Origin: Candidatus Moraniibacteriota bacterium
Lineage (GTDB): Bacteria; Patescibacteriota; Minisyncoccia; Moranbacterales; UBA2206
Direction of reading: 5' to 3'
DNA length: 64,000 bases
Assembly (NCBI GenBank): GCA_030645735.1
Contig: JAUSNP010000004.1
Span: 10,739 to 74,738 of the forward strand
Both the position numbers and the translations under genes were made by a program. This document shows, piece by piece, positions 6,234 to 37,226 of this stretch; position 1 is the stretch's first letter, and every line of letters starts with the position of its first letter. The notes under the pieces were generated by a model. That model made no database searches and was not told the origin of the DNA. It saw only the letters and a list, made by a program, of their open reading frames with translations.

Positions 6234-6284
6234 ATTTTTTAATTATTTTAGACTAATTTATTTACTTCTTTTATTATACTACAT

Positions 6285-9200: not shown

Positions 9201-10784
9201 ATAGCTATTATATGATTCATGGTAACCTGAAATTATCTCAATCGTGTCCTCTCCGTTAGAGTACGCAATATATGGATTACTAGGACTAGTCAAAGACGGA
9301 TCAAGTCGATAGACTTTACCCTCGCCTTTGGCATATTCCCATTTAGTGTCCGTGCCGGTGGAAGACAAAAACATCCCGTCTGTTCCGTTGGAATTGGTGC
9401 TGTCAAAGAGTCCATTTTCTAAGCGCATATTGCCGGCGATGTGCAAAGCTTCGGTTGGACTGGAGGTTCCAATTCCAAATTGTTTGCTGGCGTTGTCCCA
9501 GAAAAGACTGGCATCCGCCCCAAAGGTTCCGGCATTGTTAAATTGCAACTGACCAATGGAACCGCCTGGTACCGCATTGACACTAGCCCAGCTCAAGTTG
9601 CCATCACCATCAGTAGTCATAACTTGATTAGGATTGCCATCCACCGCTGGCAAGGTATAGGCGCCGGCAATGATGATTGTTTGTGTATGCAAAGTTCCTT
9701 GCACTTCAGCGTCATGGGAAATGACTAGATCACCAGTGTTTGTTAGGCCGTGATTTGAATTGTTCTCACCAATGAAAATCGGTGAAGCGCCAATCAAGCG
9801 ATGGGTATAGATCGTGTTCCAGCTTTTGTCAGAGTTGCCGAGATTGTAGGAGAGGTTGTTGTCTGGGATGATGTCCTTGGTGGTAGTGGTGCCTTCGACA
9901 GTCAGGTCAGCCTTGTCACCGGACAGAACAAGCGCGCCACTGACTTCTCCGCCAGTATTAGACAACTTAGTTTTTACATCCGTAGCCAGTTGTGTTGAGG
10001 CTTTATCAATTGATTGGGAGAAATCTTCTTTGACTGTGGAGAGATCGGCGGATAAATTGGAGTTAGAAGATGAGATTTCTTTAAATAGATTACTTTTGGT
10101 ATCGCGAATAGCCTTACCTAGAAGACCTGTTAAGGAAGCTTGCTGAGTTGAATCGTCATTAGAACTAAAGACACTTGCTATTGCCTCTCCAATGGGAGCA
10201 TAGGCTTGTGGATAGGCAAAAGCTGAGAAAGAAAACAATAGGAAAAAGACCAGGAAAGCTGAGTAGAGGATTTTTTTAGTTAGATGACTAATTGAGTCTT
10301 GGTATTCACCGATGCCTTTTTGGTACAAGCGGACAAAGAAAAGAACTAGCGAGCCAGTTACGGTTAAAACACCGATGTAGGCCATTATGATGAAGGCGTC
10401 GTCGAGGGAAAGACTGGTTACGAAGTGGAATAGTGGATAGATTAAGAAGAATACCGGTTTCCATTCAGAAGGGAAAAAGACTATAAATAGGATTAGGAAA
10501 GCTAGGGAGATTTTGAGAAAGTTTTTTAGAAAAACATCATTCTTTTGCATCAACACATACATGGCGTGATCCTGCTTGTCTTTCAGATACATCCACAAGG
10601 CAAAGCCGATTATCAATACCAACGGCATCAGAGCGATAAAGGTGACAATGAAGTTGGCAAAAAACTCAAACTGCGCCAATGAGCGCAAAATGACAAATTC
10701 AGCAAAGACTACGAAGATTAGGAAACGGCTTTTGTGTAAGTTTAATTTTTGTAGAAGTGAATATTGTTCGATTGCTTCGGACAT
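6285..10784 (-). CDS. Giant surface protein 1 (1499 aa). It has an N-terminal multi-TM anchor and G/N/S/T-rich beta-helical repeats, and ends in the conserved C-terminal module shared with the other two giant proteins.
   Basis: A long uninterrupted ORF. N-terminal hydrophobic helices. Four internal repeats of the ...TSAK(S/T)GDLINANMAVGTGSFTGDFLDFNVNS... type. The C-terminal roughly 330 aa is almost identical to the C-termini of the ORFs at 18281-24610 and 24875-32218. Confidence 0.8.
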   Translation of the reverse strand: MSEAIEQYSLLQKLNLHKSRFLIFVVFAEFVILRSLAQFEFFANFIVTFIALMPLVLIIGFALWMYLKDKQDHAMYVLMQKNDVFLKNFLKISLAFLILFIVFFPSEWKPVFFLIYPLFHFVTSLSLDDAFIIMAYIGVLTVTGSLVLFFVRLYQKGIGEYQDSISHLTKKILYSAFLVFFLLFSFSAFAYPQAYAPIGEAIASVFSSNDDSTQQASLTGLLGKAIRDTKSNLFKEISSSNSNLSADLSTVKEDFSQSIDKASTQLATDVKTKLSNTGGEVSGALVLSGDKADLTVEGTTTTKDIIPDNNLSYNLGNSDKSWNTIYTHRLIGASPIFIGENNSNHGLTNTGDLVISHDAEVQGTLHTQTIIIAGAYTLPAVDGNPNQVMTTDGDGNLSWASVNAVPGGSIGQLQFNNAGTFGADASLFWDNASKQFGIGTSSPTEALHIAGNMRLENGLFDSTNSNGTDGMFLSSTGTDTKWEYAKGEGKVYRLDPSLTSPSNPYIAYSNGEDTIEIISGYHESYNSYESNDPAFGGISAFIFLPSDRNTPAIATTTSNGNTAQEIEATIPYTHRIKIVGSRDTFNSAERLILTFGNDGSIGGGRSLSGLYEDTNGFDGAVIIQNPIRNAITVTYDGPDSDYGQWQYDYPFAFFAYENGDGWGNDPSLNSSGWMTRYSLSEAQYNAVSGLGYNNNFYYGDGSYINTEIGKNGNGFYLNYNDPNDNIDGNAFNVQGNGWGLGTFEYSGNYAAPVLSLVSYNAGNSNNAPLITGISYSITSNNLIGLTQSNSAFSGDGINMNFGGGSGSFTGDFLDFNNGNVGVNPKVFQVSSSGDTYINSAGSYALRATDANLMEGNGIIESIVSYGNTAYYAQLGADVPAMYVYDTASASNNTFNTYHSTSAKTGDLINANMAVGTGSFTGDFLDFRKNNVASFTVGHSGELRITPNTDTGSDPLYVTDGGFTTDDSTVAYLYATGGNDDLKLYQQDNNRFIFGYDYGSTTANSLYFIHNTSAKSGDLINANMAVGTGSFTGDFLDFNVNSDSVFKVRNDGGVEINDSAGNVGVWVTESGGAPAFYATITGAGYGLYIDDSDSTSDESIYVSHNTSDKTADLFHADMASGTGSFTGDFLDFNVNSVNKFKVGATGQALASDGFIQKTNAGACTDLTFTTATDGLTCLDTTLGTERLYFRTGGTWSYIAKTGGFQIPNYEVAPLNQLSKNTLKGVTPNELTHFQNYLTQQITPGELLIPYADSTLQDGAIHGLYARFADVKNQMFQEEKTQIENLNLQLTGNISTVTDLKNSVNTQLGSIEKNLTTITNNQDTFTKQVANINTQINAQTQSIASLQALTDILQQQITALQSQIATPVNIAQIDANTQSIDYLNQLLGITDTSKAGDITIVGKLTSQITETGLLTIAVNDKTAATIGEAVIVADKSVVVVKTSAVSADSKIYITPIGSTDNQVIYVKNTDIGKGFEVGVDRLDAILAPKEINFNWWIVAEK

Positions 10785-13839: not shown

Positions 13840-13957
13840 GTTTTGGCGGCGTCCTACTTTTCCTAGACTGATGCCTAGATATCATCGGGGCTGAAATGCT
13901 TAACTGCCGAGTTCGGAATGGGATCGGGTGTTGCCATTTCGCTAGAACCACCAAAAC
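13840..13957 (-). rRNA. rrf: 5S rRNA
   Basis: The reverse complement reads GTTTTGGTGGTTCTAGCG...CCGAACTCGGCAGTTAAGC...GGACGCCGCCAAAAC. It has terminal helix I pairing and conserved 5S loop motifs. Confidence 0.85.
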
Positions 13958-14394
13958 AATGCTCTTTTTTCGCAGTCCGTAAAGTCCCAAGTCCGTAAAG
14001 TTTTTAAAGTCACATACTTTATGGACTTTTGACTTTATAGCCTTTCGACTCTAGAACGCGTTTATAACTGGTGCAAAAAACAAAAATGAAAAGATCGCAA
14101 TCGCAATTACAGAGAAGATGATGAAGATAAACTTCAAGCTTTCTCCGTATTTTTTAGAATACGATTTCATATTATTATTGTCCATTGTAAATATACTAAT
14201 ACAACTATTTATTCAGTAGATCTTGTGCACTCAGTTGAATTTCGCCATAAGCAAACTTCAACCGAGATAGTTTAGAAACTATTAACCACTAACCCACGCA
14301 TAACGCGTAACGCATATCGTGAAACATATATGAAATACGTTCTACGATTTGCGCTCTACGATCTGCGATTTATTTAAATTTAAGAGTGTAATTT

Positions 14395-17570
<3,176 letters not shown>

Positions 17571-18280: not shown

Positions 18281-21200
18281 CTATTTCTTATCCACAATCC
18301 ACCAATTTATCTGCAAATCTTCTAGTAAAACCTTGCCAATTTCAATTTTGAAACTTGCGCCTTTTTGAATTGTATTCACCCCAATTTCCACTGGCTTTTC
18401 TGAAGTCACAAAAACTTTTGAGTCAGCACTGATTGCCGTGGTATCCACCTTCACCGAAGTATCGCCAGCTTTGATAATGGCCTCACCAATCGTGGCTGCG
18501 GTTTTGTCATTGACTGCAATAGTTAGTAGACCAGTTTCAGTGATTTGGGAGGTGAGTTTTCCAACTATGGTAATGTCACCAACTTTGCTAGTTGGAGTGA
18601 TGCCGAGCAACTGATTGAGATAGTCAATTGATTGGGTGTTGGCATCAATTTGCGCAATGTTGACTGGTGTAGCAATTTGCGATTGTAGAGTTGTGATTTG
18701 AGCTTGCAAAGTTGTTGCCAGATTTTCTAGAGTTGCAATTCTAATTTCATCATTTGTAATTTGAGTATTGATGTTTGAAATTTGTTTGGTTATTGTATCT
18801 TGGTTATTGGTTATTTCGCTTAGACTTTTTTCAATTGAACCAAGTTGCGTATTGATAGAATTTTTTAGTTCTGCGACTGTGGTGATGTTGCCTGTGACTT
18901 GCAAATTGAGATTTTCAATCTGAGTTTTTTCTTCTTGAAACATTTGATTCTTCACATCCGCAAATCTAGCGTAGAGTCCATGGATAGCTCCGTCTTGAAG
19001 AGTTGAGTCAGCGTATGGAATGAGGAGCTCGCCAGGAGTGATTTGTTGAGTTAGATAGTTTTGGAAATGGGTCAGTTCATTTGGAGTGACACCTTTGAGA
19101 GTGCTTTGGGAAAGTTGGTTGAGGGGGGCGACTTCATAGTTCGGAATTTGGAAACCTCCAGTTTTAGCGATGTAGCTCCAAGCACCACCGGTGCGGAAAT
19201 ACATTCGTTCTACACCCGCGGTGGAGTCTAGACAAATTTGTCCATCAGTGTCAGTGGTGAAAAGGGCGTCGGTGCAGGCGCCGGCGTTGGTTTTTTGGAT
19301 GAAGCCGTCGGAGGCAATGGCTTGGCCGACAACATCAAGCTTGGCAGTTGGAGTTACCGTCCCGATGCCGATGTTGCCGTTTTTATCAACAACACTTAAC
19401 ACGTTACCCACACTATCCTGCCACTCTTGAAGATTAGCTGATTGAGTTGCTGAATTTGCCCTAATGACTAAACCTTTTACCGTATCGCTTGCGGTTAAAA
19501 CATAAGCCCTGACTCCACTAAGTCCGCCTATCGCACCTACACTAAGTTGATTCTGATTCATTACGGTAGACACGAAAGCATTACCGACAACATGCAAATT
19601 GTATGTCGGACTCGTCGTCCCGATGCCGACGTTGCCAGCCGAAGTGTCGACATAAAGTTGATTAGTATTCACGGCAAAATCACCTGCACCGGAAAGACCA
19701 ATGTTTAAATTCGATCCGGCAGTCGGAGAAATGGTAATCGCTCCAGAAGTGGCATCAATCGTGTTTCCATCAATCCTAAGGTTATCAACCGTAAGTTGTC
19801 CTAGTCCTGTAATTGATTGGGCATTTCCAGTGACCGCGCCTAAAAGAGTGTGCGTGCCAAGTCTTAATGTTCCAGATGAAGCGGTAATATCATGATTTCC
19901 CGTTTGATTGAAAGTGAGATTACCATAAGCTGATGGATTATATTCAGAAAGGAAGGGATAAATAAATCCATTCTTTTTATACCATCCCAATTGCCTTATG
20001 TATGTTGTAGCTTCAGTCAAGGAAGTTATTGAATAACGAACACCCTTAATAGCCCATGCTGCTGGATATGGAGCCACATTCGTAACTGGCTGAGAAAACC
20101 AATACGCCTTTGAGGCTATGCTAATATCTTCATCCGCCAATGTTACCCAGGTGTCATCAAATTTTTTAATTTCCACTAAAAGATGCCCACTGATATTACC
20201 ATGAGCCTGCAGAAAAACTCTTTGACTGCCAACATCCGTGTCCGAAGGAATGCTTCCAGTTACTTCAACCACGATTGGTAAGGTCGTATTTGTAATAGTG
20301 GCGTATGTGTCTCCTTGTCTGAAAGCACTACTAACGCTTGAAATAGAACCACTAGAAGTTATAGCAAATCCTTTTGCATCGGCAAACATAAGTTGATTTC
20401 CGATATAGTCATTCATCGGTGGAGTTTGTTCAATTGTCGCGCCACCAAAAGAATTAGTAAATAAATAATTTCCTCCTGAAGTATAAGTCGAACCCCAACT
20501 ACTTAATTTTGATGTTAATGTGGTTCCATTCACATCCAATTTTGCTCCCGGTGCCGACGTCCCGATGCCGACGTTGCCAGAAGAATTAATTCTCATGTAT
20601 TCAGCGGAGAATGGATCGGTAAATCTCAACCCATATGCTCCATCGAGACCTCTAATTTGGCCACCCGATGTCTCTGTTGTGTTGGTTAATAAAATAAACG
20701 GCTCGTTTCCAGCATTACGCCGAAGTCTAATCCCCGCACTGACTCCGTCAATCTGGAATTGAGAAACAGGACTCGTCGTCCCGATGCCGACGTTGCCGTT
20801 TCCATTTATGACCAACGCACTAGTAGTAACACCCGCCCCCGCTGGGTTATAAACTTGCCAACCTAAATAATCACTTTCCGCAGTCGTACTTTCTGTTCTA
20901 TGAAGTTGATATGAGAAAGCACTAGCATTAGATATTACTCCTGTAGAAGGATTGCGGTTGAAAGATAAATCTCCTCCAGTAATGCCTCTTAAATATATTT
21001 GAGAACCTCCAACTGGACCAATTTGAAAATCTCCTCCAGCAATGTGAAGTTTAGACCCAGGCGCCGTCGTCCCGATGCCGACATTGCCGCCATTGAAATA
21101 ACTGTTTCCACCAGTATCCAATCTAATTGTTTGTGAATCTGTAGCATTATAAAAAGCAAATGTTGCACGTGTATCACTTTCTTCATAAATTCCTGCAAGC

Positions 21201-24200
21201 CTTTGTGAATCACTCGAATTTACTAAGAATCCCCAAGCATCCGTTCCTCCACTTTTTACATTCAGTTTCGCCCCCGGATTCGTCGTTCCTATGCCGACGT
21301 TGCCGTTTATATTATCTACCGCAAAGACCGTACCGGAGTTATCATATTTTTTGATGTAGCTAACACCATTAGTTTCAAGATGCGTTATTAATGTTGCTTG
21401 TCTATATAAATCCAGTCCCCCATATCCAGAACCGCTACTCGTATCCAATATCCTTGCATATGAGTAACTAGCATCACCAACGGAAAATTTAGCCAAAGGA
21501 TTCGTCGTCCCGATGCCGACGTTGCCGTTATTTGCTATTCTCATCCGTTCTACCTCTGAAGTATTTCCAGTACTAAAAGTGATTGGATAGGTTCCTCCTG
21601 CACCATATCCTCCAATCGCCCTTAATGTCAATCCATAAAATGATTCTATTCTGGAAGTAGGTCCACCTTTTATGCTGATATATTGATCTCCACTTTGAGT
21701 AGCTGATACCCTAATTCCACTGTCGCTAACCAGGTGCAGACTTGTACTTGGACTCACCGTCCCGATGCCGACGTTGCCGTTAGCTAAGACGTTTATGCCA
21801 GAACCAGCGGTGGCACCATAAAAACTTCCAATATTTATATAATTAGATGCGCTTCCGTCAGAAACATGATTATATGCAACACCACCCCTATTATTAGCCG
21901 ACGCTTCTTTACCAAGTACCATATAAGCATTTCCTCCATTGGAGATATTTGGCGTTAAGCCCTGCATGATTCCAATGGACCCTGCTGAAGTAACATTATT
22001 AGTTGCTATCATTATTGTATTAGCCCCTGAAAAAGAACCGGCCACGGATAAAGGGGATCCCGGACTCGTCGTTCCAATGCCGACGTTGCCTTCTGGAGTA
22101 ATCCGCATCTTTTCAGATGAACCTGGAGCAAAAATTTGGCCTACAGAAGAATACAAAAACGAACCTGCACTAGTAATATTGATTGACCCAGCTCTTGTGC
22201 CATCGCCCCAAGCTATTTTTTGAGATGCATATCCCGTAGAACCAACAGAACCTATTTGTAATGAAGATACTGGTGCCGTCGTCCCAATGCCGACGTTGCC
22301 ATTAGATGCCTTGATAAGCATGTTATTTATAACGGAAGAACCATTCCAACTTTTCCAACTATAATCAGCTGCTGCTGAATAAAAATTGTCAAAATAAACT
22401 TTTGTTCCGTTGGTCCATTCGAAAAACTGACTCGTGTCCGAAAAACGCAAATTACCATTGACTTCTAATTTTTGGTTTGGTGCCGTCGTCCCAATGCCGA
22501 CGTTGCCACCGGAAATAATCCTCATCGCTTCGGTTGTGCCCGGTGAAAAAATTATAGCACCCGTTGTTAGTGTATTAAGCGTGAAATTCGCTCCATTGGA
22601 TTGCGTCAAAATTCCATTAGCTCTTATATTTGTATCGGACCAGACCGAACCAGAACTGCGAATGTTACCTGTAACTTGCAATGGGTACCCCGGACTCACC
22701 GTCCCCACCCCCACATTCCCTGTTGTTGCATCCACAAAAAGTTTTCCTGAGTTAACATTCAAGTTGCCAGCCAAATCTAGGCTACCTGTTCCATACACAT
22801 TTCCATCCACATGCAATCGGTAACCATTCGCATCATTAGACCCAATCGCCACATCCCCCGTCTCTCGGTAAATATTCCCGCCTGATTCTCCCCACCAATT
22901 GGCGTTGACTGAGCCAGGAGTTAGATAGGCTCCATTAGTTGCGTCATAGAAATTGGTAGCTCTGACCGTGCCAGCTACTTCCAACTTAGTGGTCGGAGTG
23001 ATGCCAATACCCACATTGCCAGCAAGATTGTAAGCTACATCCGAACCAGTCTTGGTCCAGAAGTTTTCACCCAATTTTAATCCGTTCCAATAGACATCTC
23101 CAGCTACATTGTAAAGCTTGTCGACAGTGTCAACTGGCGCGGTGGTTTGGCGCAAATGCACGCGACCGTTGATGTCGAGAGTTTCGGTGGGAGTGTTAGT
23201 CCCCATTCCAATGTTGCCAGTTTCGCGATAGATATTGCCTGCGGTTTCTCCCCAGTAGTTAGTTGAGACACTATCAGAAGTTAGATAGATGCCACCCGGC
23301 AACATAAAGGCATCCGCTTTGACGGTGCCAGTCACTTGCAGTTTGGTGCTCGGACTATTGGTGCCAATACCTAGACGTTTGTCAGTGTTGTTCCAAAACA
23401 GTTCTGAGTCAGAGGCAAATGTGCCGTTGTCATTCCATTGCAATTGCCCCGTGGTGCCACCTGGGATGATTTTGGCTGTCCAACTCAAATTGCCATTGCC
23501 GTCAGTGGCAATGAGTTGATCCGCGCTACCATCACTAGTTGGCAGCGTGTAGGCGCCAGCAATGAGAATCGTCTCAACATGCAAGGTGCCTTGCACTTCG
23601 GCGTCGTTGGAAATCACTAAATCGCCAGTCTGAGTTAGACCGTGTTTGGAATTGTTGTTGCCAATGAAAATAGGTGAAGCGCCGATTAGACGATGGGCGT
23701 AGATGGTGTTCCAGCTTTTGCTAGAGTTACCAAGATTGTAGGAGAGATTATCATTAGGAATAATATCCTTGGTAGTGGTGGTACCTTCTACTGTTAAATC
23801 GCCTTCACTCCCTGAGAGAGTTAGGGCGCCACTGATTTCTCCGCCATCACTGGAAACTTTGCCATTGATAGATTCGGTTAGATTTTTGGAAGTGTCAGTG
23901 ATAGATTGGGTAAGCGTTTCTTTGCTGGAAGCAATAGTTTTGGACAGATCTGTTCTGGTTGAATCCAAAGCGCCAGAGAGATTGTCAGAAGTTTTGTTGA
24001 TGGCGCTTTTAGCTAGATTGAAAAAGGAACTGTTAGCTTGCAGTTGTTCACCCGAAAGTTTTGTCAGAGCAATCCTGCCTTGACTCACCGTGAACATACC
24101 ATCAGCCACTGCGTCCGTGATTGGATAGAAAGCTTGCGGGTAGGTGAAGACGGAAAATAGCAAGAGGAAAATGAAAATGAAGAAAGTGGCGTAGAGACTT

Positions 24201-24610
24201 TTTCTCGTTAGTTGTTTGACTGTTTGCTGATAAGTGCCTCGACCGATTTGATAGAGCCGGATGACATAGGTGATGAGTCCGATGGCCAGGGTGATCACTG
24301 CTACATACGCAGCCAGAAAAAAATATGTTTCTAAGGAAAAGAAGTTGCGAAAAATAGTGAAGAAATTTAGCAATGGCGCCCAAGCATTTGGAAAAAAGAC
24401 GATAAACAGAATGAGGATAGCGAGGGAGAGTTTGAAAGCCAGCTTCAAGAAAAAGCCATGTTTTACGAGAGCTTCATACAGAATGTGATCTTTGCGGTTT
24501 TTAATGTATAGCCAGAGAGCAAAGGAGATAAGTAGAATAAAGGGTGAAACAGCAATGGTGCTGGTGATCAGATTAGCCAGTGATTCATATTGAGAAAGGA
24601 ATTTGAGCAA
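18281..24610 (-). CDS. Giant surface protein 2 (2109 aa). It has an N-terminal multi-TM anchor, about 15 GNVGIGTT(S/A/N)P beta-helical repeats, and ends in the conserved C-terminal module.
   Basis: A long ORF. Its N-terminal module (GEISGALTLSGSEGDLTVEGTTTTKDIIPNDNLSYNLGNSSKSWNTIYAHRLIG...) is homologous to that of giant protein 1. It carries repeated DNA 24-mers cgtcgtcccgatgccgacgttgcc. The C-terminal roughly 330 aa is shared with the other two giant proteins. Confidence 0.8.
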   Translation of the reverse strand: MLKFLSQYESLANLITSTIAVSPFILLISFALWLYIKNRKDHILYEALVKHGFFLKLAFKLSLAILILFIVFFPNAWAPLLNFFTIFRNFFSLETYFFLAAYVAVITLAIGLITYVIRLYQIGRGTYQQTVKQLTRKSLYATFFIFIFLLLFSVFTYPQAFYPITDAVADGMFTVSQGRIALTKLSGEQLQANSSFFNLAKSAINKTSDNLSGALDSTRTDLSKTIASSKETLTQSITDTSKNLTESINGKVSSDGGEISGALTLSGSEGDLTVEGTTTTKDIIPNDNLSYNLGNSSKSWNTIYAHRLIGASPIFIGNNNSKHGLTQTGDLVISNDAEVQGTLHVETILIAGAYTLPTSDGSADQLIATDGNGNLSWTAKIIPGGTTGQLQWNDNGTFASDSELFWNNTDKRLGIGTNSPSTKLQVTGTVKADAFMLPGGIYLTSDSVSTNYWGETAGNIYRETGNIGMGTNTPTETLDINGRVHLRQTTAPVDTVDKLYNVAGDVYWNGLKLGENFWTKTGSDVAYNLAGNVGIGITPTTKLEVAGTVRATNFYDATNGAYLTPGSVNANWWGESGGNIYRETGDVAIGSNDANGYRLHVDGNVYGTGSLDLAGNLNVNSGKLFVDATTGNVGVGTVSPGYPLQVTGNIRSSGSVWSDTNIRANGILTQSNGANFTLNTLTTGAIIFSPGTTEAMRIISGGNVGIGTTAPNQKLEVNGNLRFSDTSQFFEWTNGTKVYFDNFYSAAADYSWKSWNGSSVINNMLIKASNGNVGIGTTAPVSSLQIGSVGSTGYASQKIAWGDGTRAGSINITSAGSFLYSSVGQIFAPGSSEKMRITPEGNVGIGTTSPGSPLSVAGSFSGANTIMIATNNVTSAGSIGIMQGLTPNISNGGNAYMVLGKEASANNRGGVAYNHVSDGSASNYINIGSFYGATAGSGINVLANGNVGIGTVSPSTSLHLVSDSGIRVSATQSGDQYISIKGGPTSRIESFYGLTLRAIGGYGAGGTYPITFSTGNTSEVERMRIANNGNVGIGTTNPLAKFSVGDASYSYARILDTSSGSGYGGLDLYRQATLITHLETNGVSYIKKYDNSGTVFAVDNINGNVGIGTTNPGAKLNVKSGGTDAWGFLVNSSDSQRLAGIYEESDTRATFAFYNATDSQTIRLDTGGNSYFNGGNVGIGTTAPGSKLHIAGGDFQIGPVGGSQIYLRGITGGDLSFNRNPSTGVISNASAFSYQLHRTESTTAESDYLGWQVYNPAGAGVTTSALVINGNGNVGIGTTSPVSQFQIDGVSAGIRLRRNAGNEPFILLTNTTETSGGQIRGLDGAYGLRFTDPFSAEYMRINSSGNVGIGTSAPGAKLDVNGTTLTSKLSSWGSTYTSGGNYLFTNSFGGATIEQTPPMNDYIGNQLMFADAKGFAITSSGSISSVSSAFRQGDTYATITNTTLPIVVEVTGSIPSDTDVGSQRVFLQAHGNISGHLLVEIKKFDDTWVTLADEDISIASKAYWFSQPVTNVAPYPAAWAIKGVRYSITSLTEATTYIRQLGWYKKNGFIYPFLSEYNPSAYGNLTFNQTGNHDITASSGTLRLGTHTLLGAVTGNAQSITGLGQLTVDNLRIDGNTIDATSGAITISPTAGSNLNIGLSGAGDFAVNTNQLYVDTSAGNVGIGTTSPTYNLHVVGNAFVSTVMNQNQLSVGAIGGLSGVRAYVLTASDTVKGLVIRANSATQSANLQEWQDSVGNVLSVVDKNGNIGIGTVTPTAKLDVVGQAIASDGFIQKTNAGACTDALFTTDTDGQICLDSTAGVERMYFRTGGAWSYIAKTGGFQIPNYEVAPLNQLSQSTLKGVTPNELTHFQNYLTQQITPGELLIPYADSTLQDGAIHGLYARFADVKNQMFQEEKTQIENLNLQVTGNITTVAELKNSINTQLGSIEKSLSEITNNQDTITKQISNINTQITNDEIRIATLENLATTLQAQITTLQSQIATPVNIAQIDANTQSIDYLNQLLGITPTSKVGDITIVGKLTSQITETGLLTIAVNDKTAATIGEAIIKAGDTSVKVDTTAISADSKVFVTSEKPVEIGVNTIQKGASFKIEIGKVLLEDLQINWWIVDKK

Positions 24611-24874: not shown

Positions 24875-27800
24875 TTATTTAGAATCAACCAACCACCAGT
24901 TGAATTTCAGATCTTCAACCGAAGGAATTTTAATTTTCACGATAAAGCCCTCTCCGGCATTTATCTTTGTAACGGCCAACGGTTGATCAGTGACTATCAT
25001 TGAAGTCACAAAAACCTTGCTATCCCCACTCACCGCTTTCGTGTTGACTGTCACCGAAGTATCCCCAGCCTTGATAGTGGCTTCTCCGATAGTAGCCTTG
25101 TCTTTGTTTTTTGGATCGACGGTGATGATGATGGAGCCAGTCTCAGTGATTTGCGAGGTCAATTTACCAACAATTGTAATGTCGCCAGCCTTGCTAGTGT
25201 CTGTGATGCCTAGGAGTTGGTTCAAATAATCTATGGATTGGGTGTTGGCATCAATCTGGGCGATGTTGACCGGTGTAGCAATTTGGGATTGCAAGGTGGT
25301 GATTTGTTGTTGAAGAGTTTCTGTTATTGTCTGTAGAGACGCAATATTTTGCGTCTGTGCGTTGATTTGATCATTGATATTTGAAATTTGTTTGGTGCTT
25401 GTATCTTGGTTATTGGTTATTTCGCTTAGACTTTTTTCAATCGAACCAAATTGGGTGTTAACAGAATTTTTTAGTTCTGCCACTGTGGTGATGTTGCCCG
25501 TGACTTGCAGATTTAGATTTTCAATCTGCGATATTTGCTCTTGGAACATCTGATCTTTCACATCGGCAAATCTGGCATAGAGTCCATGGATAGCTCCGTC
25601 TTGAAGAGTGGAGTCAGCGTATGGGATGAGGAGTTCTCCAGGAGTGATTTGTTGAGTTAGATAGTTTTGGAAATGAGTGAGTTCATTGGGAGTGACACCT
25701 TTGAGGGTGTTTTTAGAAAGTTGGTTAAGTGGGGCGACTTCGTAGTTGGGAATTTGGAAACCTCCAGTCTTAGCAATATAGCTCCAAGTGCCTCCAGTTC
25801 TAAAGTAGAGTCTTTCAGTGCCTAGGGTTGTATCAAGACAAGTGAGGCCGTCAGTAGCTGTGGTGAAAGTTAAATCAGTACAAGCGCCGGCGTTGGTTTT
25901 TTGGATGAAGCCGTCGGAGGAGGTGGTTTGGCCGACAACATCCAGCTTGGCAGTTGGATTGCTTGTACCAATCCCAATATTTCCAGCGGATGTTATTCTC
26001 ATTTGCTCTGCAACAACAGTGCTACCAGTTCTAAAAACTAAATCAGTTGGAACACTATCAGCAACTACAGTTCCATTTACTATTGCAAAAATAGTAGCTC
26101 TCTGCGTATAGGCTGTTCCATATCCAAAAAAACCTACAGAACCAATATAGTCTCCATTAGCTAAAGTAGATGGTGACAATATTGTCCCCCTTGATTTTCT
26201 TAGATTTAAAAGTGCAGAATGTACGCTTGAAGCATGTTGTGACGAAGTTATACCTCTGTCTGCACTAACAGTGTCAGAAGATGTTACATGTAATTCTCCA
26301 ACTGGAGAATTAGTACCAATACCAACATATCCAGTCGTACTATTAACAATAAAATTGTGTGAGTTAGTCCCTCTGCTTACCAAAAAACCTTTGTTTGCTG
26401 GGATATAAAATCCTGCATACGCTCCCTCCAATGTAAAAGAATCATTAATTCCTACTTGAAAATCTGCATTTTCTGTCCATGCTGTTGGTTTAAATCTTAG
26501 CGCTGGATAAGTTGAAGAAAGTTTTATATTACCAAGTATGTCTAATTTTTCAGCAGGGACAGTTACACCCATTCCTATTCTCCCATTACTTGTTATTCTC
26601 ATACCCTCGACTGGTGTACCCGCACTATAAGAATTTAGCAATAATGAAGATGTATTATCTGCCCCAACTCTTAACGCCTGAATTGAACCAACAGCATTCG
26701 CTACACCAGCACTATCTTTAATTTGGAAAGTGAGAGAAGAGCCAAATCCATCAACCATATCACCTGACGTAGTGTGTCTTACAAACAAAGCTGAAGCTAC
26801 GGAATTTGTAATAGCAGTTGCCCTTTCTAGCGTAATTATTTCAGAAGCACCACTAATTACATGTAACTTGCTTTCAGGAGCAGTCGTGCCGATGCCGACG
26901 TTGCCAGTTGGTTTAATTGTCATAGCAGTAATCTCGGCAGTATTAGAAGAGACTCTAAATTGCATGTTTGCTGGATTATAAAAAGTAGAACCAGCAGTGC
27001 CATCTTGTTGAACAATAATTCTAGCAGCTTGACCAAAAGTATTAACAGAAGTAACTCCGCCAAATTGAAAAATACCTAAATAATCTCCATCTTGTGTTGT
27101 AACCATAGAACCAGCTGTTGTTCCACGTGTTTTTAACCAACTTCCATAGGAAGCATTACCATCATTACCAAATTTTGTAATTTGAAATTGGTCTCCTAAA
27201 CCACTACCAGCTACTTCTAGTTTATATGCGGGCGCCGTCGTCCCGATGCCGACATATCCGTTTGTTCTTAGTAAAGTCATTACCGTGGATTTTAAAGCAC
27301 CTGCGTCCGTTCGACTGACAAATTCTAAATTTGTGCCAACATCGCTACCAGATTCTGCTACACTATTTGCTCTGATTATCCACCTAGAAAGTCCCCCTGA
27401 AGAAAACATCAAATCACGTGACTGTCCCGCTGCCGAATTAATCATAGCTGATACATATCCACCGTTACCATCTACCTGCAGTAAAGATGTGGGCGTTGCT
27501 GTTCCAATACCAACACTACCATTGAATGCCACTATGTCAGTTGAAAAATCTCCATAAATCAAAGGCGAGGCAGTGTTAGAGTTGTCGATATATAATTTGT
27601 TTGAACCAGTTTCGCTGTAGCCAGACTTATATCCAATAAATATATTGCCTGAACCAAGTACTGAATATCCAGCTTGGTAGCCAACTCCTGTATTATAGTT
27701 GCCAATGATGTTGGAGTAGAGAGTATCCACACCATTAGCAGTATTGAAGGAGCCTGTGGTATTAGAAAAAAGAGTATGCCTACCATTGGCAGTATTATAG

Positions 27801-30800
27801 GAACCTGTGGTATTGACATAGAGAGCATTCATACCATTGGCGGTGTTTTGAAGCCCCGTAGTGTTAGTATAGAGTGCTTGTCCACCATTGGCAGTATTTT
27901 CTTGGCCCGTAGTATTGAATCGGAGAGCTCTATATCCATTAGCTGTATTTACGCCACCCGTAGTATTAGAGTTTCCAGCCTGATAACCCGTGAAAGTATT
28001 CCAATTTCCCGTATTAACATTCCCTGCTTGATAGCCAAGAAAGGTTGAAAATCTTGCATCATCAAAATTAATCAGTCCACTAACTTGCAAGCTATTATTT
28101 GGCGTTGTAGTTCCAATGCCGATGTTGCCTGTTGCATTTACTACCGTTAATAAAGCTGTGCCGCTTGAATTACTAACAATTATATTTCCACCTAACTCTG
28201 GTGCAAATAAAAAATTATTGCTGTTGTCGATTCCAAAATACCCCTGACGAGCCGTATTATTATAAAATTCGATATAATTCCAACCGCCCGTGGTCTTACG
28301 CAATCTAATAGGATTATCAGTTGTGCTCGAAATTTCTAATTTTGCCCCTGGCGTCGTTGTCCCGATGCCAACATTTCCACTGCTTGCTTGAATATACATA
28401 CGATCAGTGGCACCGGCGTTGAATCGCATATTTATTGAATTAGCCGAGCCCATACTTAGTGTGCCGCTAGTGCTATTTCCATCATGCGTAAAAAGCGCAG
28501 CCCCGCCAAGACGGACATATTGATTCTGAGCTAGATTTAAATCGCCACCGCCAATGTCCAACTTGTATGCTGGATTCGTCGTTCCAATTCCAACATTGCC
28601 TCGCAAAATTGTTTCCACGACAGAGGCGTTGCCCAGCACTACTTGATTGCTAGCGGTGGTATAGGCGCCATTGCCCAGTGCCATGGAATTTGTAGCATCA
28701 ACTTTTTGCGAAGCATTGTTGCCAGCACTATTTCCCAAAAATGTATTGTATGTCCCAGTTGTAATTGAAAATCCAGATTGATAGCCCATAGCCGAATTGT
28801 TATCAGCAATAGTATTGCGCAAAGAATATGGACCAATTGCTACATTTGAAGAACCCAAGACATTCATTCTAAGCGCTTCTGAACCAACTGCTACATTATA
28901 TGCTCCAGAAGTATTGGCATACAGAGTATATGAACCAATTGCTGTATTCATCATCCCCGTGTTATTTGGCCCAAGAACATAAACTCCCAAAGCAGTATTA
29001 TAATTGCCAGTATTATTGACACTCGCTCCAGCGCCTATCAATGTTGAGTTCTTCGCACTATCAAAATTAATCAATCCTGCCACCTGCAAAAGATTATTTG
29101 GCGTAGTCGTGCCAATACCCAAGCTTCCATTGACGGCCAAAATATTGGTTGAAAAATCTCCATAAATCAAAGGCGTGGCCGTGTTGGAATTGTCGATATA
29201 CAATTTGTCTGATCCAGTTTCGCTGTAACCAGCTTGGTAACCAAGAAAGATGTTGCCAGAGCCAAGCGCTGAATATCCAGCTTGATAACCAAAGCCAATA
29301 TTATTGCTGTTGGTACTAATGTTCCTAAGAGTTTCCTGGCCTATGGCATAATTATTAGAACCAGTCGTGTTTGAAATAAGCGCATACAAGCCAATAGCGA
29401 TATTACTGTTTCCAGAAGTATTTGAATAAAGAGCCATATTGCCCATGGCGGAATTATATGATCCAGTAGTGTTAGAATACAATGCCAGTGGCCCAAAGGC
29501 AGAATTATATGAGCCAGTAGTATTAGAAAAAAGGGCGCTATTTCCCAAAGCTGAATTATAAAATCCAGCAATGTTTGCACGAAGCGCTTGGTTTCCTAGA
29601 GCTGAATTATAACCACCTGTAGTGTTTGAAAAGAGAGCTAGATAGCCAATTCCCGTGTTATCATTATTCGTCAAATCATCCACTTTTCCAGCATCTTCAC
29701 CGAAATAGGTTGACCGTCCTAGCCCAGTTTGTGAAACCCGTCCGTTAATGGTTAGTTTTGCTCCAGCAGTTGAAGCGCCGCTAATTCCTACTGTGCCATT
29801 TATGGTCAGTGCATCGGTTGAAAAATCTCCATAAATCAAAGGCAACGCTGTATTGGAATTGTCGATATACAATTTGTTTGAACCAAGTTCATTATAGCCA
29901 GCGTTATAGCCAACAAAAATATTGCCCGAACCAACAGAATTTTGAAATCCTGCCCCATTGCCAACACCAACGTTGCTATTTCCAGTAGTATTGCCCCGCA
30001 AAGCATCTACGCCGACAGCCGAGTTATAGCTACCCGTCGTATTGGAATAAATAGCATACACTCCGAAAGCAGAGTTGTATCCACCAGCAGTATTATATCT
30101 GAGAGCTCTCATCCCAAACGCAGAATTACTCCAGCCATCAATGTTATACATCATGGACTGATAACCTACAGCTACATTATTTTGACCAGCAGTATTGCGA
30201 TTAAGAGTTTGATATCCGACTGCAATATTATTTGAAGCTGTATTACTATAAAGAGTACCTGTTCCAATGGCAATGTTATAACCACCTGTGTTAGAATATA
30301 GCGCCTGATATCCCACAGCTATATTGTCTTGACCCGTGGTATTTAACGCCCCAGCCTGATAGCCCACAAAGGAGTTATGAATTCCAGCATTCGCATTCCC
30401 CGCTTGATAACCAAGGCTTGTGGAATATAGGGAGTTATTAAAATTTATAAGTCCCGCTACTTGAAGAAAATTATTTGGCGATGAAGTTCCAATGCCAAGA
30501 TTACCAGCAAAATATCCATTACCGCTAGCATCGAGCTTGAATTTATTGACGCTATTAACATTGAAATCCAAGAAGTCGCCACTGAATGAGCCAGAGCCGT
30601 TGGCGAAATTCATATTGATACCATCTCCAGAAAAAGCGGAGGTTGTCTGAGATAAACTCAAAGCATTTCCGGTTGTTACTCCACTCTGATATAAATATAT
30701 CCCGCTTGAACCTGATGCAACAGTCGATAACTCAAGCGCGGTATTGCTTATATTTTGATTTATTGTAAGGGCTGCGCCTTGTGCATTGTTTGTAAAAACT

Positions 30801-32218
30801 GCCCTGCCTCTTGGCGCAATAGTGAAAACATCCCCACCACCGAGAGTTGCAGGTTGTGATATTTTAAAGACACTCTGGCTAACTCCTTCCTTCCCTTGAA
30901 TATGCAGATTGGCGGATGGCGTACTCGTCCCAATCCCCACATTCCCCTCAGCATAAATATTTTTCACATTCAAATCCCCCAACTCCTCCGTATTCTCTCT
31001 TTGAAATAAGTTAAATTGTGACAGAGTGGCGTCCCAGACCAAGGCTGCATAGCCGTTTAGGCTCGAGCGATAGAAACGCAAGCCCATAGTTTCATCAACT
31101 GTTGAATCAGTGTTGATGGCAAAGTATTCACTGGTAGTTCCGTTTAGGTCTGTTCCACCTACACTCATGTTGTCTACATACAAGCTAGACCAGTGATTGG
31201 TAGCTGAGCCCAAATTAAGTCCCGTGGTTGATGGAATCAAATTGGAATTGATGGTCACATTCTCACCCGAGGTTCCCAGTGTGGCCTCACCATTGATGAT
31301 GAGTGATCTAGCATTGATAGTTCCAGCAACATCCAGCGCATAGGCAGGATTGTCTACGCCGATGCCGACATTGCCGTTGTTTAAAATCACCATCCGTTTA
31401 ACATCGGCGATTTTGATGAAAACATCACCTATGCCATCGGCGTTGGAGTCAGCGATGACCAATGCGTCGTCCGTATTGGAAATGTTTTGAGAAGAGATCA
31501 AATCTCCCCAAGCCGGCAAGCCGTTGATGACGCTTAGGACTTGTCCATTAGTACCAATTTTTAAATTAGACAGTGTGTTAGCAGCTGAAGCAAAAAGGGT
31601 GTCGCCGACGGTGTAGGTGGTGAGACCAGTGCCACCAAAGTTTGTGGTGACAGCATCGCCTTCCCAGGTTCCCGTGGCAATCACGCCGAGCGTTGTGATG
31701 CTGGGTAGAATTTTAGCATCGATCTTTCCACCTTTAGCTAGTTGCACAATGTTGCCTTCGGCTGTGCCAAGAGTGGCGCCACCGACTGAGTAGGAATCTG
31801 AAGCCAATGGCACAGCACCAATCTTTTTTCTGGGCACCATTTCACTGTCTGTGTTGATGCGGATACCGATGTAGTAATCATTTTCAGAAAAGTTCAAATC
31901 GGCCGGCAAAGGAGTTTCTTCCCCGAGGAAAGCGCCGATAGAACCGTTTTCAATTTTCACCTTTTGGGTTTCCTCCCAAACTCTGGCTCCAGCATCAGCA
32001 TTAGATGGATAACCATCTGTCTTTGTGCGGTCAGTGGTGTAAATGGCAAAACGGATGTCATATTCCCCATTGGGAATTTCTTTGTTTTTGTTGTTGAGGA
32101 TGTAGGCGGAGACATCGAGTTTTTTGATGGCTTGCGCGTGATTGGAAAAAAACAAAAGACTGCCTACTGTTGTTAGTAGAGCGACAGTTGCAATTAGTTT
32201 TGTTTTTGTTCTAAACAT
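24875..32218 (-). CDS. Giant secreted surface protein 3 (2447 aa). It has a signal peptide, tail-fibre-like NTxG/AxG beta-helical repeats, and ends in the conserved C-terminal module.
   Basis: The N-terminal signal peptide is MFRTKTKLIATVALLTTVGSLLFFSNHAQA. There are long runs of the YxSxxGxxAL..NTTGxxN(T/S)A.G repeat type seen in phage tail-fibre/beta-helix proteins. The SGDFLDF module and the C-terminal roughly 330 aa are shared with giants 1 and 2. Confidence 0.8.
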   Translation of the reverse strand: MFRTKTKLIATVALLTTVGSLLFFSNHAQAIKKLDVSAYILNNKNKEIPNGEYDIRFAIYTTDRTKTDGYPSNADAGARVWEETQKVKIENGSIGAFLGEETPLPADLNFSENDYYIGIRINTDSEMVPRKKIGAVPLASDSYSVGGATLGTAEGNIVQLAKGGKIDAKILPSITTLGVIATGTWEGDAVTTNFGGTGLTTYTVGDTLFASAANTLSNLKIGTNGQVLSVINGLPAWGDLISSQNISNTDDALVIADSNADGIGDVFIKIADVKRMVILNNGNVGIGVDNPAYALDVAGTINARSLIINGEATLGTSGENVTINSNLIPSTTGLNLGSATNHWSSLYVDNMSVGGTDLNGTTSEYFAINTDSTVDETMGLRFYRSSLNGYAALVWDATLSQFNLFQRENTEELGDLNVKNIYAEGNVGIGTSTPSANLHIQGKEGVSQSVFKISQPATLGGGDVFTIAPRGRAVFTNNAQGAALTINQNISNTALELSTVASGSSGIYLYQSGVTTGNALSLSQTTSAFSGDGINMNFANGSGSFSGDFLDFNVNSVNKFKLDASGNGYFAGNLGIGTSSPNNFLQVAGLINFNNSLYSTSLGYQAGNANAGIHNSFVGYQAGALNTTGQDNIAVGYQALYSNTGGYNIAIGTGTLYSNTASNNIAVGYQTLNRNTAGQNNVAVGYQSMMYNIDGWSNSAFGMRALRYNTAGGYNSAFGVYAIYSNTTGSYNSAVGVDALRGNTTGNSNVGVGNGAGFQNSVGSGNIFVGYNAGYNELGSNKLYIDNSNTALPLIYGDFSTDALTINGTVGISGASTAGAKLTINGRVSQTGLGRSTYFGEDAGKVDDLTNNDNTGIGYLALFSNTTGGYNSALGNQALRANIAGFYNSALGNSALFSNTTGSYNSAFGPLALYSNTTGSYNSAMGNMALYSNTSGNSNIAIGLYALISNTTGSNNYAIGQETLRNISTNSNNIGFGYQAGYSALGSGNIFLGYQAGYSETGSDKLYIDNSNTATPLIYGDFSTNILAVNGSLGIGTTTPNNLLQVAGLINFDSAKNSTLIGAGASVNNTGNYNTALGVYVLGPNNTGMMNTAIGSYTLYANTSGAYNVAVGSEALRMNVLGSSNVAIGPYSLRNTIADNNSAMGYQSGFSITTGTYNTFLGNSAGNNASQKVDATNSMALGNGAYTTASNQVVLGNASVVETILRGNVGIGTTNPAYKLDIGGGDLNLAQNQYVRLGGAALFTHDGNSTSGTLSMGSANSINMRFNAGATDRMYIQASSGNVGIGTTTPGAKLEISSTTDNPIRLRKTTGGWNYIEFYNNTARQGYFGIDNSNNFLFAPELGGNIIVSNSSGTALLTVVNATGNIGIGTTTPNNSLQVSGLINFDDARFSTFLGYQAGNVNTGNWNTFTGYQAGNSNTTGGVNTANGYRALRFNTTGQENTANGGQALYTNTTGLQNTANGMNALYVNTTGSYNTANGRHTLFSNTTGSFNTANGVDTLYSNIIGNYNTGVGYQAGYSVLGSGNIFIGYKSGYSETGSNKLYIDNSNTASPLIYGDFSTDIVAFNGSVGIGTATPTSLLQVDGNGGYVSAMINSAAGQSRDLMFSSGGLSRWIIRANSVAESGSDVGTNLEFVSRTDAGALKSTVMTLLRTNGYVGIGTTAPAYKLEVAGSGLGDQFQITKFGNDGNASYGSWLKTRGTTAGSMVTTQDGDYLGIFQFGGVTSVNTFGQAARIIVQQDGTAGSTFYNPANMQFRVSSNTAEITAMTIKPTGNVGIGTTAPESKLHVISGASEIITLERATAITNSVASALFVRHTTSGDMVDGFGSSLTFQIKDSAGVANAVGSIQALRVGADNTSSLLLNSYSAGTPVEGMRITSNGRIGMGVTVPAEKLDILGNIKLSSTYPALRFKPTAWTENADFQVGINDSFTLEGAYAGFYIPANKGFLVSRGTNSHNFIVNSTTGYVGIGTNSPVGELHVTSSDTVSADRGITSSQHASSVHSALLNLRKSRGTILSPSTLANGDYIGSVGFFGYGTAYTQRATIFAIVNGTVVADSVPTDLVFRTGSTVVAEQMRITSAGNIGIGTSNPTAKLDVVGQTTSSDGFIQKTNAGACTDLTFTTATDGLTCLDTTLGTERLYFRTGGTWSYIAKTGGFQIPNYEVAPLNQLSKNTLKGVTPNELTHFQNYLTQQITPGELLIPYADSTLQDGAIHGLYARFADVKDQMFQEQISQIENLNLQVTGNITTVAELKNSVNTQFGSIEKSLSEITNNQDTSTKQISNINDQINAQTQNIASLQTITETLQQQITTLQSQIATPVNIAQIDANTQSIDYLNQLLGITDTSKAGDITIVGKLTSQITETGSIIITVDPKNKDKATIGEATIKAGDTSVTVNTKAVSGDSKVFVTSMIVTDQPLAVTKINAGEGFIVKIKIPSVEDLKFNWWLVDSK

Positions 32219-35295: not shown

Positions 35296-35667
35296 CTACT
35301 CCCTAGATACAAAATAAAACTCTATCAAAAATATTCCTGCCAACAACAATAATCCATCCCACCAAACTAGCAATCTCAGGCTTTGCAAAATCAGAAGTCC
35401 AATCGCAAACAATGCCAACAACATTCCCTGTCGAAAACTAAGTCCGACATTGGAAAAAGCATTTTCCATATCCACATTTTTTCTACGTAACCACAACAAC
35501 AACAGATTGAAAAGCCCACTCAGAGCAAAAAACAAACTGCAATAAAAAAGCAATTTGCCCGCCACACCTGTCGCATCTGGATCAACGAATTTGACCACAA
35601 AAACAAATGCCACAACTGAAAGCAAAGTTACCAAACGAATGCCCCAAATGTATGATTTTAAGGTCAT
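35296..35667 (-). CDS. Small integral membrane protein (4 TM helices), hypothetical
   Basis: A 123-aa hydrophobic ORF. Confidence 0.45.
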   Translation of the reverse strand: MTLKSYIWGIRLVTLLSVVAFVFVVKFVDPDATGVAGKLLFYCSLFFALSGLFNLLLLWLRRKNVDMENAFSNVGLSFRQGMLLALFAIGLLILQSLRLLVWWDGLLLLAGIFLIEFYFVSRE

Positions 35668-35897
35668 AGAAGTTTAATTGTTTTTTTATTTTACTTTTTT
35701 AATTATACAGCATTTCAAATATTTTGGCAAAGGCTTAAATAAAGCAAAAACAGTCCGCCAAGACGAACTGTTTTTGATATGCGGGAAGGACAGTTGATAG
35801 GTGGGAACATGTTTCCAAGGCTGGTGACTGGCATTTTGGAGAATTGGGATAGGATTGAGGTGAAAGTGGAAAGGATGGAGACTTTGATGAAGGGTTG

Positions 35898-36113: not shown

Positions 36114-36192
36114 CTTTGTGATGATAGTGAAAACAAATTGACCACACTCTTTATTATGCAACAATTGAATAAAAAAATTTTACTTTTTTTAT

Positions 36193-36642: not shown

Positions 36643-36663
36643 TTCGGTTAATAACTAAATTTA

Positions 36664-37221: not shown

Positions 37222-37226
37222 ATTTT

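Follow-up and report, generated by a model that had tools for sequence, protein, structure and literature searches.

A bounded, synonymously conserved 24-nucleotide block in the capping-loop codons of a giant Moranbacteria fibre gene, and its possible role as an in-frame recombination junction

Why should eight codons recurring along a giant gene be spelled almost identically from copy to copy, while the sequence between them has diverged beyond recognition? The question is raised by g2, a fibre gene on the minus strand of a 64,000-nucleotide (nt) stretch of contig JAUSNP010000004.1 (assembly GCA_030645735.1, positions 10,739 to 74,738) from a Candidatus Moraniibacteriota bacterium; this whole stretch is called the window, and all coordinates are counted within it. 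On the coding strand the block reads GGCAACGTCGGCATCGGGACGACG, that is GGC AAC GTC GGC ATC GGG ACG ACG, and encodes the peptide GNVGIGTT; this spelling is termed canonical below. A preliminary description of the same DNA had attributed the array to recent repeat homogenisation and had seen in it a substrate for in-frame changes of repeat number. The present analysis finds that conservation at synonymous sites is confined to the block, that other arrays are homogenised to spellings of their own, and that the canonical spelling recurs in distant genomes. The explanation we favour, to which we give an even chance of being right, is that the blocks act as in-frame recombination and gene-conversion junctions between fibre modules. 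The gene, its shared module and its two paralogues, with lengths in amino acids (aa), are as follows.

18281..24610, minus strand: g2, giant fibre gene, 2109 aa, identical (100% match) to the NCBI hypothetical protein Q7T51_01850 of a Candidatus Moranbacteria metagenome-assembled genome
18281..19352, minus strand: C-terminal module of g2, common to g3 (79% nt identity) and g1 (82% nt identity)
24875..32218, minus strand: g3, paralogous fibre gene, 2447 aa, with the shared C-terminal module at 24875-25958
6285..10784, minus strand: g1, third paralogue, 1499 aa, with the C-terminal module at 6285-7352 and without a GNVGIGTT-type block

The window was searched for CGTCGTCCCGATGCCGACGTTGCC with up to 3 mismatches, and the expectation was taken from 100 dinucleotide-preserving shuffles. 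Twelve matches were obtained, none of them in the shuffles; all lie on the plus strand, antisense to two minus-strand open reading frames (ORFs), with ten in g2 and two in g3. Three of the ten g2 matches are exact, four carry one mismatch and three carry two. Subsequently, g2 and g3 were translated and scanned for the peptide motif, which yielded further copies written in other codons. The copies are listed below in coding order.

22697..23218, minus strand: four N-terminal motif-like copies in g2 (GNIGMGTN, GNVGIGIT, GDVAIGSN, GNVGVGTV) in non-canonical codons
22484..22507, minus strand: block copy at aa 702, GGC AAC GTC GGC ATT GGG ACG ACG
22277..22300, minus strand: block copy at aa 771, ATT variant, with 31 nt of exact identity to the copy at aa 702
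22067..22090, minus strand: block copy at aa 841, ATT and GGA variants
21755..21778, minus strand: block copy at aa 945, GNVGIGTV, final codon GTG
21503..21526, minus strand: block copy at aa 1029, exact canonical 24-mer
21281..21304, minus strand: block copy at aa 1103, ATA and GGA variants
21065..21088, minus strand: block copy at aa 1175, AAT variant
20774..20797, minus strand: block copy at aa 1272, exact canonical 24-mer
20555..20578, minus strand: block copy at aa 1345, GNVGIGTS, final codon TCG, one change from ACG
19613..19636, minus strand: block copy at aa 1659, exact canonical 24-mer
19355..19378, minus strand: eleventh and last g2 block, at aa 1745, GNIGIGTV, four differences
26882-26905, 27236-27259, 28355-28378 and 28577-28600, minus strand: near-canonical copies in g3

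The array described earlier is real, with overwhelming statistical support, but its count of at least 12 copies in g2 was slightly too high, ten copies having two mismatches or fewer and one more being a variant. The spacing given for it, roughly 200-950 bp, agrees with the measured 207-942 nt (successively 207, 210, 312, 252, 222, 216, 291, 219, 942 and 258 nt), and the two or three copies assigned to g3 were recovered at 26882, 27236 and 28355, with 2, 3 and 4 differences from the canonical spelling. Every spacing in g2 is a multiple of 3, and all copies are direct and in a single frame. At the last block, the array specific to g2 gives way to the C-terminal module common to g2 and g3, while the four motif-like copies at the other end sit in the part of g2 that is collinear with its homologues. 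The peptide motif occurs 13 times in g3, mostly in codons unlike the canonical ones.

Codon by codon, the motif in the 11 copies of g2 has identities of 1.0, 0.82, 1.0, 1.0, 0.44, 0.67, 1.0 and 0.97; outside the block codon identity lies at chance level, with 0.25 at Gly+17, 0.21 at Val+15, 0.16 at Leu+13 and 0.27 at the invariant Pro+9. This contrast between the synonymous sites of the repeat (0.44-1.0) and those of its surroundings (0.27 at Pro+9, 0.16 at Leu+13) had been named beforehand as the refuting test of homogenisation, and homogenisation came through it. The flanks of the units share about 10% aa and about 30% nt identity, and a BLAST comparison of g2 with itself returned only matches of 29-71 nt, all centred on the block, in which identity extends over no more than 24-34 nt (71 nt at 77% in the longest). 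The modules must therefore be old, with synonymous-site protection restricted to the unbroken run of invariant residues. Conservation ends exactly where the first variable codon breaks amino-acid invariance, which fits a process that needs uninterrupted homology.

The codons so preserved are minority codons, since g2 outside the motif uses GGG at 10%, ACG at 15%, GTC at 24% and AAC at 33%. All eight third positions of the block are G or C in a gene whose third-position GC content (GC3) is 0.36, and five NNC codons in a row are followed by three rare NNG codons. Under the codon usage of g2 itself, the probability of exactly this spelling of GNVGIGTT is 3e-6. Within the same genome, g3 writes the same peptide in varied codons, with a within-array codon identity of 0.29 against 0.34 expected. 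The claim that the DNA is conserved beyond what the protein requires is borne out by both results.

The protein context of the block is that of a fibre. The N-terminus of g2 comprises a hydrophobic anchor and a conserved stalk of about 630 aa, collinear with the nearest homologues (themselves 35-45% identical to g2); the centre (aa 631-1744) is a hypervariable array of beta-helix modules without collinear orthologues in the homologues; and the C-terminus is a conserved coiled-coil and tip module with 74-77% aa identity to g1 and g3. The anchor is common to g1 and g2 (48% aa identity), and the first 464 aa of g2 are collinear with g1 and the homologues at 41-48% identity, so that one end of the protein is conserved and one diversified. 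In the homologues, the N- and C-terminal domains are 34-48% identical to those of g2 (33-47% for the homologues taken singly) and the number of units differs from one homologue to another. All three paralogues begin with hydrophobic segments and end in a coiled coil and a small tip module, and g2 and g3 match PHROG tail-fibre and tail-spike families (E=1.8e-44 for g2 and tail-fibre). Residues 828-1110 of g2 align motif on motif with the MAT (mosaic adhesive trimer) fibres 8OND (bd2133, E=5e-6), 8OJN and 8OML of Bdellovibrio bacteriovorus, with an identical unit boundary, '..ERMRI..GNVGIGT..P...L.V'. A domain search found no PF13884 (Peptidase_S74) in g1, g2 or g3; the domain is present in several homologues of g2 (P0005, P0007-P0009). 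By these homologies, g2 is a membrane-anchored, phage-tail-fibre-like protein of the Bdellovibrio MAT-like kind, belonging to a non-S74 subgroup, and is predicted to assemble as a trimer on the cell surface. No close strain of its source was found in a collection of 5.8 billion proteins.

Beta-helix domains of such fibres carry capping loops with the consensus V-G-G/N-pi-x-x-P-x-x-x-L, which are common to S74-type phage fibres (Caulton et al. 2024, PMC10769870). In g2, V-G and P lie one residue further apart than in this published consensus, and the GNVGIGTT motif is, from the alignment of sequences, the capping loop that opens each beta-helix module (GNVGIGTT-x-P-x-x-x-L). The same paper is concerned with proteins; its passages on recombination, mosaicism, the capping loop and horizontal transfer say nothing of DNA-level conservation or of recombination at the motif (PMC10769870).

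Homogenisation of the block is not peculiar to g2. Twenty-six arrays with at least four copies were compared, comprising g2 and g3 of the window, viral-contig loci from an unbiased scan, and three homologues retrieved by protein similarity (loci carry L numbers). Within arrays, the mean codon identity of the motif is 0.62 against 0.39 expected from the codon usage of each ORF, whereas the control residues give 0.47 against 0.40 expected (Pro+9) and 0.28 against 0.31 expected (Leu+13). Each array has its own position-specific consensus, such as GGT AAT GTT GGT ATA GGT ACA ACA in L195, GGA AAT GTA GGT ATT GGT ACT ACT in L149 and GGC AAC GTC GGT ATC GGG ACG ACG in L155. Because the three glycines of one array can take unlike codons, and because g2 and g3 differ in spelling, codon preference is not the cause. 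Array-specific spellings of this kind are the hallmark expected of concerted evolution confined to the block.

The canonical spelling itself is found far beyond this genome. A scan for the exact 24-mer in GTDB species-representative genomes, in which the matches were chosen by the 24-mer itself, found it in at least 120 stretches with a GC content of 0.28-0.62. Among the matches listed, 64 stretches belong by record title to the candidate phyla radiation (CPR)/Patescibacteria and 15 to archaea (DPANN lineages and methanogens), the other carriers including Elusimicrobia, Omnitrophica, Bdellovibrionales, Planctomycetales and Acidobacteria; some arrays there hold up to 13 exact copies within 8 kb. 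The block is followed by NNN-CC (x-Pro) in 182 of the 183 copies among the matches listed, which gives an identical protein context, and the third position of that proline and the other flanking synonymous sites of these copies are uninformative. A literature search returned no match for the peptide GNVGIGTT or for the 24-mer.

Additionally, an unbiased scan for GGN AAY GTN GGN ATH GGN ACN ACN was made on viral and metagenome contigs, with 240 loci and 444 motifs listed. The canonical form is the commonest of 336 spellings, at 16 of 240 loci, the next one, a one-step neighbour, being found at 5. When one motif per metagenome locus is taken, the exact form makes up 8 of 120, where per-position frequencies predict 0.08, and 17 of 120 lie within one change against about 1 expected; the viral set holds 3 exact and 11 with two changes or fewer per 120 loci. 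Of the 64 possible all-GC3 spellings, the canonical one accounts for 32 of 45 occurrences, and the choice between G and C is specific to position despite identical neighbouring bases (locus majority C:G of 117:8 at Gly1, 51:64 at Gly6 and 26:78 at Thr7). The homologues L241, L242 and L243 were retrieved by protein similarity, not by the 24-mer. The central arrays of L241 and L243 contain the canonical block, with a codon identity of 0.75-0.86 to the g2 copies, whereas the orthologous N- and C-terminal domains of these two show only 0.39-0.46 at identical residues; the block codon identity of L242 and g3 is at baseline, 0.41-0.52. The distribution of mismatches is two-state, with an excess at 0-2 and at 7-8 differences, as would be expected if conversion depended on identity and so reinforced itself.

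What remains of the recent repeat homogenisation first proposed is homogenisation confined to the block. Recent duplication of units has to be given up, the units being about 10% identical in aa and random at the synonymous sites beyond it, and local homogenisation cannot be the whole account, since the identical 24-mer occurs in more than 100 distant genomes and in homologues saturated at synonymous sites.

Three smaller observations concern the same block. The motif was seen on the IMG/VR contigs L221 and L235, labelled as giant-virus metagenome-assembled genomes (GVMAG; labels only), with one exact canonical copy in L221. The first base 3' of the block is a purine in 181 of the 183 canonical copies among the matches listed, and a serine in that place (codon +8) is written AGY in 25 of 28 cases in the canonical class and in 54-63% in others, TCN being far rarer. 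This bias toward purines and AGY probably arises because Ser, Asn, Thr, Gly, Asp and Ala are mutational neighbours.

Exchange at the block was sought through an all-against-all nucleotide comparison of the fetched loci. Five pairs of related fibre loci (L145/L237, L151/L237, L125/L341, L234/L238 and L023/L246) have 85-100% nucleotide identity on one flank of a motif and cannot be aligned on the other, and in each of them identity switches inside the 24-nt block. Only the endpoints of hits with at least 90% identity were used for the junction statistic; hits at 78-83% that end at motif edges were excluded as in part an artefact that the conserved block itself produces. Of 19 interior endpoints, six fell within 12 nt of a block against 2.4 expected (p=0.025). 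Within the window, nucleotide homology between g2 and g3 (79% over 962 nt) sets in immediately behind the final block in both genes. The C-terminal modules of g1 (6285-7352), g2 (18281-19352) and g3 (24875-25958) form a patchwork of identity, with an identical run of 121 nt between g1 and g3 and other 60-nt windows favouring g1-g2 or g2-g3, and it follows that gene conversion among the three paralogues has occurred. The proposed substrate for in-frame change thereby gains indirect support from four sides: direct in-frame copies, differing unit numbers in homologues, mosaic junctions within the motif, and a module shared by g2 and g3 that starts at the last motif.

These observations suggest a mechanism. 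Eight invariant contiguous residues would make the DNA beneath them the sole uninterrupted homology among unrelated modules, paralogues and foreign fibre genes. A crossover within the block would delete, duplicate or swap whole modules while regenerating the capping loop intact, and heteroduplex repair and gene conversion limited to the block would keep the copies identical at synonymous sites, as concerted evolution of the block alone. Identity would permit recombination and recombination would restore identity, so that arrays would end up either homogenised, as g2, or decayed, as g3. If modules were also exchanged between genomes and viruses through the same blocks, one spelling could come to prevail across many lineages. 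We infer that recombination maintains the block, and that exchange between lineages, not a sequence-specific function, accounts for the canonical spelling.

Several results weigh against this recombination account. RecA-dependent recombination in Escherichia coli has a minimal efficient processing segment of roughly 23-27 bp, and a block of 24 nt stands at the lower limit for it. The distance between copies is almost unrelated to their homogeneity (rho=-0.065), a very weak effect on which distance-dependent slippage was also rejected. The junction statistic is based on 19 endpoints, a small sample. No recently exchanged module was found in g2, whose best foreign unit match has 58% aa identity, and the GC3 of its central array is host-like at 0.36; recent import of a cassette into g2 was rejected for want of a unit with a close foreign relative. 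Furthermore, neutral conversion leaves the rate of change of an array consensus unslowed and by itself does not account for the spelling common to g2, L241 and L243. The canonical spelling is also too specific (32 of 45 all-GC3 occurrences) and demands an extra force, be it gene flow, biased conversion together with infrequent G<->C change, or selection for the sequence as such.

Selection of the last kind would make the 24-mer a sequence-specific nucleic-acid element, either a DNA or mRNA recognition site or a transcription or translation pause aiding module folding, which we regard as unlikely. The dominance of one spelling speaks for it (found at 16 of the 240 unbiased loci, the second commonest at 5, and making up 32 of 45 among all-GC3 spellings), as do its exact presence in at least 120 genome stretches with a GC of 0.28-0.62, the position-specific choice of G or C despite identical neighbours, and its retention between homologues otherwise saturated at synonymous sites. 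Yet g3 in the same cell is near-random (0.29 against 0.34 expected) and L242 is at baseline (0.38-0.43); many arrays are homogenised to quite different AT-rich spellings, which a universal requirement does not predict; no neighbour gene is conserved among the window, L241, L242 and L243; and nothing was found in Rfam at gathering thresholds. Translational selection on codons at critical residues, through accurate or fast NNC codons or a rare-codon pause at GGG ACG ACG that aids folding, is distinctly unlikely. Such selection would suit the run of five NNC codons followed by three rare NNG codons and the favouring of AAC at asparagine even in AT-rich arrays (21 of 22 in L224). AAU is misread more often than AAC, and the preference at this residue may contain an accuracy component. 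The invariant Pro+9 and Leu+13, however, have no codon preference (proline in the canonical class is CCG 29, CCA 28, CCT 15 and CCC 13 times), the three glycines of one motif are coded differently in the same array, g3 is unconstrained with the same genome and tRNA pool, and array spellings differ between loci of similar GC. Genome-wide codon preference and tRNA effects were rejected on the contrast between g2 and g3 and on the Pro+9 and Leu+13 controls. General GC-biased conversion is a further candidate source of the spelling, motif GC3 being 0.45 against 0.32 expected with no significant effect at the Pro+9 control; but it is the canonical-like copies that account for the excess (a test without the near-canonical ones is circular), and in several arrays homogenisation has produced all-AT spellings.

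Structure at the RNA or single-stranded DNA level, in the form of a hairpin CGUCG, 9-nt loop, CGACG, is a very improbable target of selection. Its stem appears in most minimum-free-energy folds of 40-nt segments, third-base complementarity between Val3 and Thr7 is 0.425 against 0.277 expected (120 loci), and GTC/ACG, GTA/ACT and GTT/ACA are each the commonest combination. A non-pairing control (8-23) is nevertheless equally enriched (0.475 against 0.29); where Thr7 and Thr8 differ, the predicted partner is not favoured (60 against 42 motifs; 32 against 27 loci); the third base of asparagine agrees with the wrong partner (62 against 36); no covariation links Ile3 and Val8 (1 of 24); and fold z-scores reach only -0.4 to -2.0. 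With the controls, the discordant-threonine, asparagine-partner and isoleucine/valine tests all failed and the z-scores weak, the hairpin CGTCG-N9-CGACG is largely refuted, and the wider idea of a structured RNA repeat found neither an Rfam family at gathering thresholds nor supporting covariation. Recent tandem expansion of whole units, with the block as the part not yet diverged, is scarcely credible. The units are direct, in frame and regularly spaced, and the adjacent copies at aa 702, 771 and 841 share ATT, two of them with 31 identical nt; but the same 24-mer occurs in distant genomes, no self-match exceeds 71 nt, and the flanks are only about 10% identical in aa, their conserved residues being at chance synonymously. 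Divergent flanks and random synonymous sites outside the block exclude recent whole-unit duplication, and the self-comparison of g2 refutes it equally. A diversity-generating retroelement is not indicated, no RVT domain being found in a scan limited to the window's 25 larger ORFs and no pair resembling template and variable repeats in the self-comparison. For a shufflon, all copies are direct and no recombinase lies beside the gene; the window has a single recombinase, of the large serine type, which lies at a tRNA-flanked island about 15 kb away from g3 and 22 kb away from g2.

An observation made with the hairpin tests stands by itself. The valine codon of the unbiased loci (L121-L240 and L244-L363) tends to have a third base complementary to those of both threonine codons (motif positions 8, 20 and 23), for which GC content alone is insufficient; the association may arise from loci that are not independent by phylogeny.

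A bolder proposal sees in the 24-mer GGCAACGTCGGCATCGGGACGACG a 'public' junction sequence, a nucleotide-level standard in the capping-loop codons of fibres across CPR, DPANN, other phyla, phages and giant-virus contigs, kept either for in-frame module exchange across genomes or for recognition by a conserved factor. We put it forward tentatively, as possible but more probably wrong than right. If it were true, something other than the protein would be keeping synonymous sites unchanged from one domain of life to another; if exchange were the reason, the host-recognition proteins of whole communities would draw on one pool of cassettes.

Attachment to other cells is the way of life of CPR bacteria and DPANN archaea, which makes their giant fibres prime candidates for host recognition. 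If the blocks are in-frame junctions, fibre genes could be rearranged like strings of cassettes, and a spelling found in phages and distant microbes alike would suggest that recognition modules are drawn from one shared pool. The locus also illustrates how selection or conversion can act on the synonymous sites of just one run of eight codons, with relevance to rules of gene design, to the recognition of recombination hot spots from sequence alone, and to the assembly and interpretation of giant repetitive genes in metagenomes.

Among known systems, the closest analogue of this DNA behaviour appears to be the glycine-rich motifs (GRMs) of the T-even gp38 adhesins. In these, the exchanges that create chimeric adhesins fall within or near the conserved motifs (Tetart et al. 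1996, 1998, cited in Trojet et al. 2011, PMC3157838). As in g2, the GRMs of gp38 and the conserved motifs of gp37 are short, strictly conserved motifs between hypervariable host-recognition segments, and the double role as structural element and recombination junction that we propose for the g2 block would be a further likeness, its junctions being recognised comparatively. In g2 itself we find a motif between hypervariable segments, DNA conservation beyond that of the protein, and mosaic junctions at the motif, these last from a small comparative sample. The differences are that g2 has no sequence relation to gp38, its motif being a predicted capping loop of a trimeric beta-helix module; that it is a chromosomal CPR gene with eleven in-frame copies, not a phage adhesin; and that here one 24-nt spelling extends across bacterial phyla, archaea and viral contigs. 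To our knowledge, a single nucleotide spelling across lineages has not been described for GRMs.

The fibres nearest in protein terms compare differently. The Bdellovibrio MAT fibres (8OND, 8OJN, 8OML) have the same unit boundary and capping-loop motif as the g2 modules, and S74-type phage fibres differ from g1, g2 and g3, which are without the S74 domain. In polymorphic toxins (the VENN motif of CdiA, the core boundaries of Rhs), a conserved in-frame boundary motif gives the homology for replacing the variable downstream part, with one boundary per gene and orphan cassettes nearby; g2, in contrast, has many boundaries in one gene, and there is no silent cassette store in the window. The streptococcal surface repeats of Alp/Rib type are homogenised in-frame direct repeats like those of g2, but in them whole units are near-identical, whereas identity in g2 covers only 24 nt per unit of 207-942 nt. 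Near-identity of whole units, as in concerted evolution of tandem repeats or in contingency repeats, was not found in the self-comparison of g2.

The paralogues carry repeats of other kinds. In g3, aa ~575-1585 (27470-30500) form a run of ~20-aa repeats of the type 'NTTG.YNSA.G..AL' that match PHROG virion-structural and tail-spike families, and the same region holds larger internal duplications (gene nt 2662-3137 against 4270-4745 at 70%, and 121-nt segments at 81-84%). A second cassette type, 'SGDGINMNF..GSGSF.GDFLDFNVNS', is found in g1 (~7365-8432) and g3 (~30537-30655) with 79-87% nt identity; it is repeated 4 times in g1 and is unrelated to the GNVGIGTT block. The gene order fibre, TPR/O-antigen-ligase-like, mechanosensitive-channel-like is common to 2308-10784 of the window and 3001-12990 of L242, which makes L242 the positional counterpart of g1, not of g2.

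The window is a chromosomal segment, with genes for 23S and 5S rRNA, gyrB, ligA, a gatA-like protein, ftsW and L25. The 23S rRNA match (13841-17563, minus strand) spans 3182 nt against a model of 2925 nt, which points to an insertion of ~250 nt; 5S adjoins it, no 16S is adjacent because g2 lies directly upstream, and the ORFs listed inside the span are spurious. In CPR bacteria, rRNA genes are typically unlinked or interrupted by insertions. A low-GC stretch at ~35300-48500 (0.35 against ~0.41) contains a ResIII helicase/endonuclease (38109-40784), an N6/N4 DNA methylase (41372-43534) and the large serine recombinase (46857-48443, plus strand), whose 3' end overlaps tRNA-Asp (48416-48490) with two tRNA-Met genes adjoining; it looks like an integrated island with a type III-like restriction-modification system. 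Further downstream, two surface genes encode a Fib_succ_major-domain protein (53695-54780) and a platform protein of a type II secretion system or type IV pilus (T2SSF; 58488-59702).

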